IMG/VR virus record: IMGVR_UViG_2681813154_000006
Length of the DNA stretch: 7,768 nt
Strand: one strand, 5' to 3'
From: a virus
Taxonomy: Duplodnaviria; Heunggongvirae; Uroviricota; Caudoviricetes
Shown: piece after piece, positions 2,357-2,694 of the stretch
Position numbering within the stretch: position 1 is the first letter of the stretch
Layout: every line of letters begins with the position of its first letter
Notes under the pieces: generated by a model
Database searches by the model: none
The model's input: the letters and a program-made list of their open reading frames with translations, nothing else
Told to the model about the DNA's origin: nothing
Position numbers and translations under genes: made by a program

Positions 2357-2599
2357 ATGACTTTTACCCCTGAACAATTGCGTAAACACGCGCAGGAAAT
2401 GCTGCGTCATGCTGAACAACTCGAAAAAACGGGCATAACAAAAGATGCTATCCGTAAAGATATGGTACCCGCGCTTCGGGAACTGATGCAGGCGAAGCAT
2501 CGCGCACAGAAAGCAGTAGATGAGCTGGTGGACTGTGTGGCAGAGCTGGAAACCAGAGTCGGAAAGTTTGAAAAACTGGTGCAGGAGGCGCTGCGCTGA
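2357..2599 (+). CDS. hypothetical small helical protein (80 aa)
   Basis: ORF track 2342..2599 begins at a TTG; the first ATG is at 2357 (MTFTPEQLRK...). Charged, Leu/Glu/Lys/Ala-rich composition suggests coiled coil. Sits in the nin-like region directly downstream of the helicase. No family recognised. Confidence 0.45.
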   Translation: MTFTPEQLRKHAQEMLRHAEQLEKTGITKDAIRKDMVPALRELMQAKHRAQKAVDELVDCVAELETRVGKFEKLVQEALR

Positions 2600-2694
2600 T
2601 GCGCCATGAGTTTGTTTTGCCCTGGCTTGTGCGCGATCATTATGTCCCTGGTGGAAAGCCCGGGATAAAAATCACCGAACCGGAGAGTATTTGA
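2599..2694 (+). pseudogene. rusA remnant: 31-codon ORF joining a RusA-like N-terminus to a RusA-like C-terminus
   Basis: Translation MRHEFVLPWLVRDHYVPGGKPGIKITEPESI. Its N-terminus matches 'ERIEFVLPYPP' and its C-terminus matches 'VPGGRLGIKITELG' of the intact RusA at 3841..4206. ATG overlaps the upstream stop (2597-2599) and the stop overlaps the ninH ATG. Confidence 0.5.

Follow-up and report, generated by a model that had tools for sequence, protein, structure and literature searches.

An in-frame deletion relic of rusA in a lambdoid prophage of Shigella and Escherichia coli, with a neighbouring intact rusA that is most probably a scaffold artefact

A 31-codon open reading frame (ORF) in a lambdoid prophage is an ordinary relic of rusA, widespread in Shigella and present in a few Escherichia coli. 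We found it in a stretch of 7,768 nucleotides (IMG/VR record IMGVR_UViG_2681813154_000006; hereafter the window), which extends from the early-right region of a lambdoid prophage to its lysis region and which, as assembled, also contains an intact rusA further downstream. Taking both parts together, we consider it highly likely that the ORF is a non-functional deletion relic of rusA and that the downstream rusA belongs to a second prophage, brought into the window by draft assembly.

In the scenario that we favour, the relic goes back to a rusA gene, encoding a Holliday-junction resolvase, that was carried by a phiP27-like/lambdoid lineage of prophages in Shigella flexneri and a few E. coli. 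One non-homologous event of the deletion type would have fused codon 9 to the codon that stands 22nd from the end, at the cost of 88 codons and with the frame preserved. The deletion would have spared the ribosome-binding site native to rusA, a start codon that overlaps the upstream stop, and a 3′ end that contains the ribosome-binding site and overlap of ninH. Judging from the sequence, translation of the stub probably continues incidentally, along with that of the early rightward operon, and may pass ribosomes on to ninH. The intact rusA would derive from a second prophage elsewhere in the chromosome, the draft assembly having placed contigs of the two prophages in series with 10-N gaps around a repeat common to both, the tRNA-holin region. 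The relic carries little biological weight, being a further case of gene decay in a lambdoid prophage of mosaic make-up; the window also illustrates that 10-N joins between similar prophages can fabricate apparent duplications such as “two nin modules” or “tandem repeats”.

Results and discussion

A DnaC-like loader is encoded within an ORF at positions 10–957, where annotated relatives begin at about base 79, and is followed by a DnaB-like helicase (954–2345) and by an 85-amino-acid hypothetical gene of the phiP27-like replication module (2342–2599, + strand, from the ORF list). The 85-amino-acid gene is annotated as hypothetical after a DnaB-like helicase in every relative, and matches no Pfam family above the curated cut-off. 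Next come the 31-codon ORF, which runs from ATG to TGA at 2599–2694 (+ strand, ORF list) and encodes the peptide MRHEFVLPWLVRDHYVPGGKPGIKITEPESI, and ninH (2694–2894, + strand; 66 amino acids; Pfam PF06322, E = 3.6e-26), which is annotated as protein ninH in an identical E. coli locus. The end of ninH overlaps by 8 nt an antiterminator Q gene of the PF06530 type (2887–3267, + strand; 126 amino acids).

The signals on either side of the 31-codon ORF can be read directly from the sequence. A Shine-Dalgarno motif (5′-AGGAGG-3′, 2583–2588, + strand) lies 10 nt 5′ of its ATG and is the native rusA ribosome-binding site, since the same stretch precedes full-length rusA in three related loci (L002, L026 and L028). 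TGATG overlaps occur at 2597–2601 and 2692–2696: the TGA of the 85-amino-acid gene (2597–2599) shares one base (A) with the ATG of the ORF, and the TGA of the ORF (2692–2694) likewise shares one base (A) with the ATG of ninH. The ribosome-binding site that serves ninH (5′-GGAG-3′, 2682–2685, + strand) lies inside the ORF, 8 nt 5′ of the ninH ATG, and the micro-ORF is bordered on both sides by overlaps and ribosome-binding sites. The coordinates and the coupled layout that the first-pass annotation of this DNA had given proved to be exact.

The first-pass annotation had also read the ORF as an in-frame internal-deletion remnant of rusA and proposed aligning it to rusA, and protein similarity, DNA similarity and two-sided synteny all bear this out. 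In BLASTP comparisons with the 121-amino-acid RusA of the window, peptide residues 10–27 matched RusA residues 100–117 (12/18 identical, E = 9e-7) and residues 2–9 matched RusA residues 4–11 (6/8 identical, E = 0.008); the two matches are collinear and lie at the correct RusA termini. When the peptide was shuffled 1000 times with its composition preserved, no shuffle equalled both the N- and the C-terminal scores against any of five RusA proteins from phages, so that both termini are matched beyond chance.

Synteny at the DNA level is stronger evidence for the rusA identity than the protein matches. From the left, window positions 2200–2621 are 87–89% identical to prophages of E. coli where the same 85-amino-acid gene precedes a full-length rusA, and the figure for the 85-amino-acid gene together with the first ~23 nt of the ORF is about 89–90%; this gene order is seen in L002, L026, L027, L028 and L029, and full-length rusA begins with MRHEFILPY or MRLECVLPY in the left-flank relatives L002, L026 and L028. 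From the right, homology to the 3′ end of rusA begins exactly at window position 2627 (query base 10 in a blastn search against complete E. coli genomes), and from 2644–2662 homology continues into ninH in phages with a rusA-ninH order (L003–L005; Shigella phages 75/02 Stx and POCJ13), and then into Q in L004 and L005. The ORF thus combines collinear homology to both rusA ends with a missing middle and a syntenic position, as befits a pseudogene, and it occupies the rusA operon slot between the replication/nin genes and ninH/Q.

The possibility that the ORF is a chance reading frame in an intergenic spacer, unrelated to rusA, was considered because the 31-amino-acid peptide has no Pfam match and PGAP leaves the stretch unannotated. 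This reading is refuted by the BLASTP matches in correct order and at the correct termini, by the shuffles, and by syntenic DNA homology that enters full-length rusA from both sides, and we regard its probability as negligible.

To map the deletion junction, we used alignments fixed at the start codon and at the stop codon. DNA homology on the left is contiguous to position 2621 (~87–89% identity), and the codon alignment carries the match to 2625/2626. The 5′ stub consists of rusA codons 1–9 (MRHEFVLPW; 2599–2625, + strand), as placed by DNA homology and codon alignment, and the 3′ stub consists of the last two bases of codon 10, codons 11–31 and the stop (2627–2694, + strand; residues 10–31, LVRDHYVPGGKPGIKITEPESI followed by the stop, as placed by the alignments). 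The junction therefore joins codon 9 (TGG, ending at 2625) to the TT of codon 10 (2627) at 2626–2627 (+ strand), with at most one base ambiguous, and every alignment shows 88 codons (264 nt) of rusA to be absent with the frame kept. The first-pass annotation had described the first ~9 residues of RusA fused to its last ~16; the N-terminal figure stands, while the retained C-terminal part comprises 22 residues. It had also suggested looking for short direct repeats at the deletion endpoints, and among all available alleles we found none longer than 1 nt, the parent allele itself not having been recovered. Because no full-length parent was found, the endpoints and the comparison for microhomology are read against alleles that are 69–90% identical in the relevant segments.

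The RusA of the window aligns with E. coli RusA (PDB 1Q8R) with E = 2e-24 and an offset of one residue, and on this basis residues 11–98 of E. coli RusA are the counterpart of what was deleted. In E. coli RusA, loop 15–28 and residues R69, D70, D72, K76 and D90/D91 are reported to be essential for catalysis or DNA binding, and the protein is a dimer of ~120-amino-acid monomers, each with a four-stranded sheet and two helices (PMC1636454). Loop 15–28 and all of the listed residues fall in the deleted stretch (the aspartate positions were checked), as do both helices, which leaves a stub of 31 amino acids. Since all of the catalytic and DNA-binding residues are gone, the stub product cannot be a resolvase, and the alignment shows the predicted peptide to be without resolvase activity. 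At the Pfam gathering score, no family and hence no RusA domain was detected in the 31-amino-acid stub, while the 121-amino-acid RusA of the window scored 59.1 bits. A single-sequence AlphaFold model of full RusA had a mean pLDDT of 37 and was discarded for mapping the retained elements.

Our search for a full-length parental rusA whose flanks match covered 5,426 complete E. coli genomes, phage records, IMG/VR, GTDB species representatives, metagenome contigs and a set of 5.8 billion proteins, and found none. Nine of the 5,426 complete E. coli genomes contain the region, and all nine carry the stub; none of the phage records contains the stub region. When positions 2618–2700 were compared with complete E. 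coli genomes by blastn, the best other match was 78% identical over 59 nt. The stub reads GGKP at a position where rusA has a conserved GGRL, and VRDHY in place of VRGQL, and a parent carrying its distinctive residues (DHY, GGKPG) was not found in the same collections. A codon-degenerate DNA pattern for GGKPGIKITE recovered 16 IMG/VR loci and two loci in species-representative genomes, all of them exact copies of the stub, and two metagenome patterns that required upstream RusA context returned zero matches and then two chance matches in unrelated high-GC contigs. In a protein search, a 40-amino-acid read-through query likewise recovered nothing beyond the stub and two frameshift variants, each on record once. 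The GGKP and VRDHY changes could be drift that followed the deletion. We found nothing specific to this rusA remnant in the literature.

Because no parent was found, we also considered that the stub may be the joint of two phages, formed by illegitimate recombination at non-equivalent points within rusA, with one donor providing the replication genes, the 85-amino-acid gene and the 5′ end of rusA and the other providing the 3′ end of rusA, ninH and Q. In related loci with annotation that we read, the left flank is followed by rusA-DUF1133, by rusA-Q or by Q directly and never by rusA-ninH; the last 30 nt of the stub and ninH are closest to a different, DUF1364-linked rusA clade; and no parent with the order 85-amino-acid gene, full rusA, ninH was found. 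All three observations are in keeping with a joint. The affinities of the individual segments, however, point elsewhere. The 5′ segment (2602–2625) is closest to rusA alleles linked to the 85-amino-acid gene (19/24 positions), and the segment immediately right of the junction (2627–2661) is closest to the clade linked to the 85-amino-acid gene and to DUF968-linked relatives (24/35) and less similar to ninH-linked alleles (17–19/35). Only the last segment (2662–2691) is closest to ninH-linked rusA alleles (26–27/30, 87–90%).

These affinities place a mosaic boundary at ~2662, about 35 nt to the right of the deletion junction and not on it, which fits a mosaic parent that lost its middle. The two segments that border the junction are closest, or tied closest, to one rusA clade, which fits an intragenic deletion. 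These counts, which are small, speak for one rusA, mosaic beforehand, that lost its middle rather than for illegitimate crossing of two phages. Given the small counts and the missing parent, we keep the two-phage joint as a live rival, with a probability of around one chance in five by our estimate.

Exchange between the rusA module and the ninH module thus took place within the last ~11 codons of rusA, at ~2662.

The slot between the 85-amino-acid gene and Q is variable among relatives. It is empty in phiP27, in Stx1a-converting phages and in E. coli RMDEC332; it holds rusA followed by Q in L028 and L029, and rusA followed by DUF1133 in L002, L026 and L027; and in the window it holds the rusA stub followed by ninH. 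The heptamer TGATGCG, which combines a stop/start overlap with the first bases of an Arg codon, occurs at both 2597–2603 and 2885–2891, flanking the stub-plus-ninH segment, and in the empty-slot relatives phiP27 and RMDEC332 the 85-amino-acid gene is joined straight to Q at TGATGCG. Recombination might be concentrated at this heptamer where modules meet, or its recurrence may be a coincidence of RusA and Q both beginning with Met-Arg.

Several features of the stub could be taken as signs of selection, either for a translational bridge to ninH and Q or for a 31-amino-acid micropeptide that is functional in itself. The reading frame survives the deletion, 5′-AGGAGG-3′ lies 10 nt 5′ of the ATG, each end of the stub has a TGATG overlap, and GGAG is found 8 nt 5′ of the ninH ATG; the ORF is called by some gene callers; and only two singleton frameshift variants stand against at least 1000 contigs with an intact ORF. 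Each of these signs has to be set against other observations. An in-frame outcome of a deletion has a prior of one in three. The 96 nt are identical in all 35 loci that we read, but across positions 2342–3267 (926 nt) these 35 loci differ at only four substitution sites and one indel, none of them in the stub; the carriers are therefore nearly clonal, so that the invariance of the stub is expected without selection and is uninformative about it.

With respect to a bridge, ninH has a Shine-Dalgarno motif of its own, and the local RNA fold is no more stable than that of shuffled sequences (z = −0.62), with no structure that would occlude ninH or tie it to upstream translation. No promoter or terminator consensus was found inside the stub, and an Rfam scan detected only tRNAs. 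The peptide matches no family, the change from GGRL to GGKP resembles relaxed constraint, and the Shigella prophage fragment, flanked by IS ends, appears degraded. Selection on the micro-ORF in general thus seems improbable to us. Retention of the stub as a ribosome bridge for ninH and Q, or as a two-strand micropeptide (the first and last beta-strands of RusA) that would disturb the host’s other RusA or junction processing, is a shade less probable still. Our preferred view is that the stub is probably translated yet is a relic without function.

The intact rusA requires a separate explanation. The first-pass annotation placed it next to the remnant, about 1.2 kb downstream, but a run of 10 Ns lies between the two, and what lies beyond is the sequence of another prophage. 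The window contains four runs of exactly 10 Ns (3470–3479, 5142–5151, 5667–5676 and 5946–5955), the first of which marks the change from the prophage that carries the stub (prophage A) to a second one (prophage B). Bases 1–3469 and 5956–7690 are 100% identical to a locus at ~0.705 Mb in CP182555.1 (L006), in which Q is followed directly by the tRNA-holin region; this locus ends at the equivalent of window position 7690, and L037 carries a 100% match as far as 7768. The segment at 3480–5945 (+ strand) is for the most part prophage B, being 98.7–100% identical to L048 and to L050, the other prophage of CP182555.1 at ~1.95 Mb. Within it, a stretch that starts somewhere between 5252 and 5459 and ends at 5666 is the prophage A allele.

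Prophage B contributes a DUF968/HNH-like gene cut at the gap (3499–3840, + strand), the intact rusA of 121 amino acids (3841–4206, + strand), a Q gene of the PF06323 type (4197–4886, + strand; 229 amino acids) and tRNA genes. The DUF968 ORF starts at the N run and covers only profile positions 66–169 of 171; as the gene encodes 352 amino acids in finished genomes (L048/L050), the ORF in the window is a contig-edge truncation and not a biological fragment.

The other N runs show the same signs of a scaffold. They do not preserve length, since the 10 Ns at 5946–5955 stand for 40 nt of L006. An apparent 207-nt tandem repeat upstream of the holin gene (5460–5666 and 5678–5884), which surrounds the N run at 5667–5676, consists of the prophage A allele and then the prophage B allele of one and the same segment, as distinguished by five diagnostic sites; such mixing of A and B alleles beside N runs is typical of a collapsed repeat. 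Window positions 3450–3469 and 5068–5087 match the same 20 nt of L006, so that the unique sequence of prophage A stops ~20 nt into the homology between A and B, as is expected if an assembler or scaffolder placed the two entries into a shared repeat in series. Gene order, duplications and distances across the four N runs are unreliable.

The actual distances between the two can be read from finished genomes in which the identical stub occurs together with an identical 121-amino-acid RusA gene. They lie 250 kb apart, in different prophages, in E. coli FDAARGOS_944, and ~1.2–1.3 Mb apart in CP182555.1 and CP026765.1, and in none of the finished genomes examined are they neighbours. The junction at 3470–3479 is not spanned in any of the complete E. 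coli genomes, neither the window nor the finished genomes checked contain a contiguous link between the two nin modules, and all 35 loci that we read across the remnant region have the tRNA/holin region immediately after Q. A scaffold artefact is the most probable explanation for the adjacent intact copy.

These results bear on the proposal that the first rusA copy decayed because it had become redundant in cis after a second nin module (DUF968-rusA-Q) was acquired 1.2 kb downstream. The window as given does show both copies at that spacing, and the genomes that bear the stub also carry an intact 121-amino-acid RusA somewhere, so that redundancy in trans is possible. However, the supposed second module (the truncated DUF968 gene, rusA and Q, 3480–4886) lies past the gap at which DUF968 is cut, the neighbouring N runs flank mixed A and B alleles, and in finished genomes it is located 0.25–1.3 Mb away. 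The distances and the gap evidence leave decay in cis unsupported, and we consider it very improbable, more so than selection on the stub. Resolvase could possibly be supplied in trans by another prophage. The earlier suggestion that the remnant documents the mosaic history of the region holds for the variable slot between the 85-amino-acid gene and Q but not for tandem nin modules.

The exact peptide is on record in 1709 assembly-collection blocks and at least 1000 contigs, as “uncharacterised protein [Shigella flexneri]”, and the exact NinH in 5604 assembly-collection blocks. PGAP leaves the 96 nt unannotated in the identical locus that we read, and other pipelines call an “uncharacterised protein” in many Shigella and E. 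coli assemblies; these 96 nt deserve the label rusA remnant. The two singleton frameshift variants (P0002 and P0003) are 48 and 31 amino acids long and may be sequencing errors.

Comparison with known systems

The first 9 and last 22 residues of the stub are homologous to RusA (PF05866), as represented by E. coli K-12 RusA (PDB 1Q8R/2H8C) and by lambdoid prophage rusA genes, and the stub shares with these genes the operon slot, the ribosome-binding site and the stop/start overlaps. It lacks 88 internal residues and any Pfam match, and is a relic and not a functional member of the family.

The rusA-ninH-Q module of Shigella phages 75/02 Stx and POCJ13, Escherichia phage PhiR5_2 and Stx1-type and related phages has the same gene order and the same rusA/ninH overlap, with 76–84% DNA identity from 2662 through ninH. 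In those phages, however, rusA is full length (120 amino acids) and follows DUF1364/ninE/ninB, whereas the stub in the window follows the module of DnaB and the 85-amino-acid gene. The phiP27-type module (DnaC-like, DnaB-like, L20 hypothetical protein and Q; phiP27 and Stx1a-converting phages) is 88–90% identical to the left flank, and the left flank of E. coli RMDEC332 (DnaB and the 85-amino-acid gene) is 99% identical to the window. Unlike the window, the phiP27-type module has neither rusA nor ninH between the 85-amino-acid gene and Q.

The nin5 mutation of phage lambda is a laboratory deletion of ~2.8 kb that removed many genes and the tR2 terminator. It likewise lies between the replication genes and Q and leaves a viable operon, whereas the stub is a natural, in-frame loss of 264 nt within one gene.

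Other features of the window

The ends of the window (1–58 and 7712–7768) recur beside transposase genes of the IS3 family (L001 at 9239–9296, L037, L046, and L050 at 8014–8070), which suggests a Shigella prophage fragment that may be bounded by IS copies. The PF06323-type Q gene at 4197–4886 is intact here, is annotated as frameshifted in FDAARGOS_944, and has no gene called at its position in two Shigella loci (L050 and L055). A 209-amino-acid ORF (6085–6714) between the class II holin and lysozyme genes matches no Pfam family; its position is kept in other copies of prophage A, and it is frameshifted in FDAARGOS_944.

A cluster of tRNA-Lys(ttt), tRNA-Thr(tgt) and tRNA-Gly(tcc) genes lies downstream of Q at 5153–5385, and the tRNA-Ile gene that precedes the cluster in finished genomes is broken in the window by the N run at 5142–5151. 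The complete tRNA sets are Ile/Arg/Thr/Gly in prophage A and Ile/Lys/Thr/Gly in prophage B.
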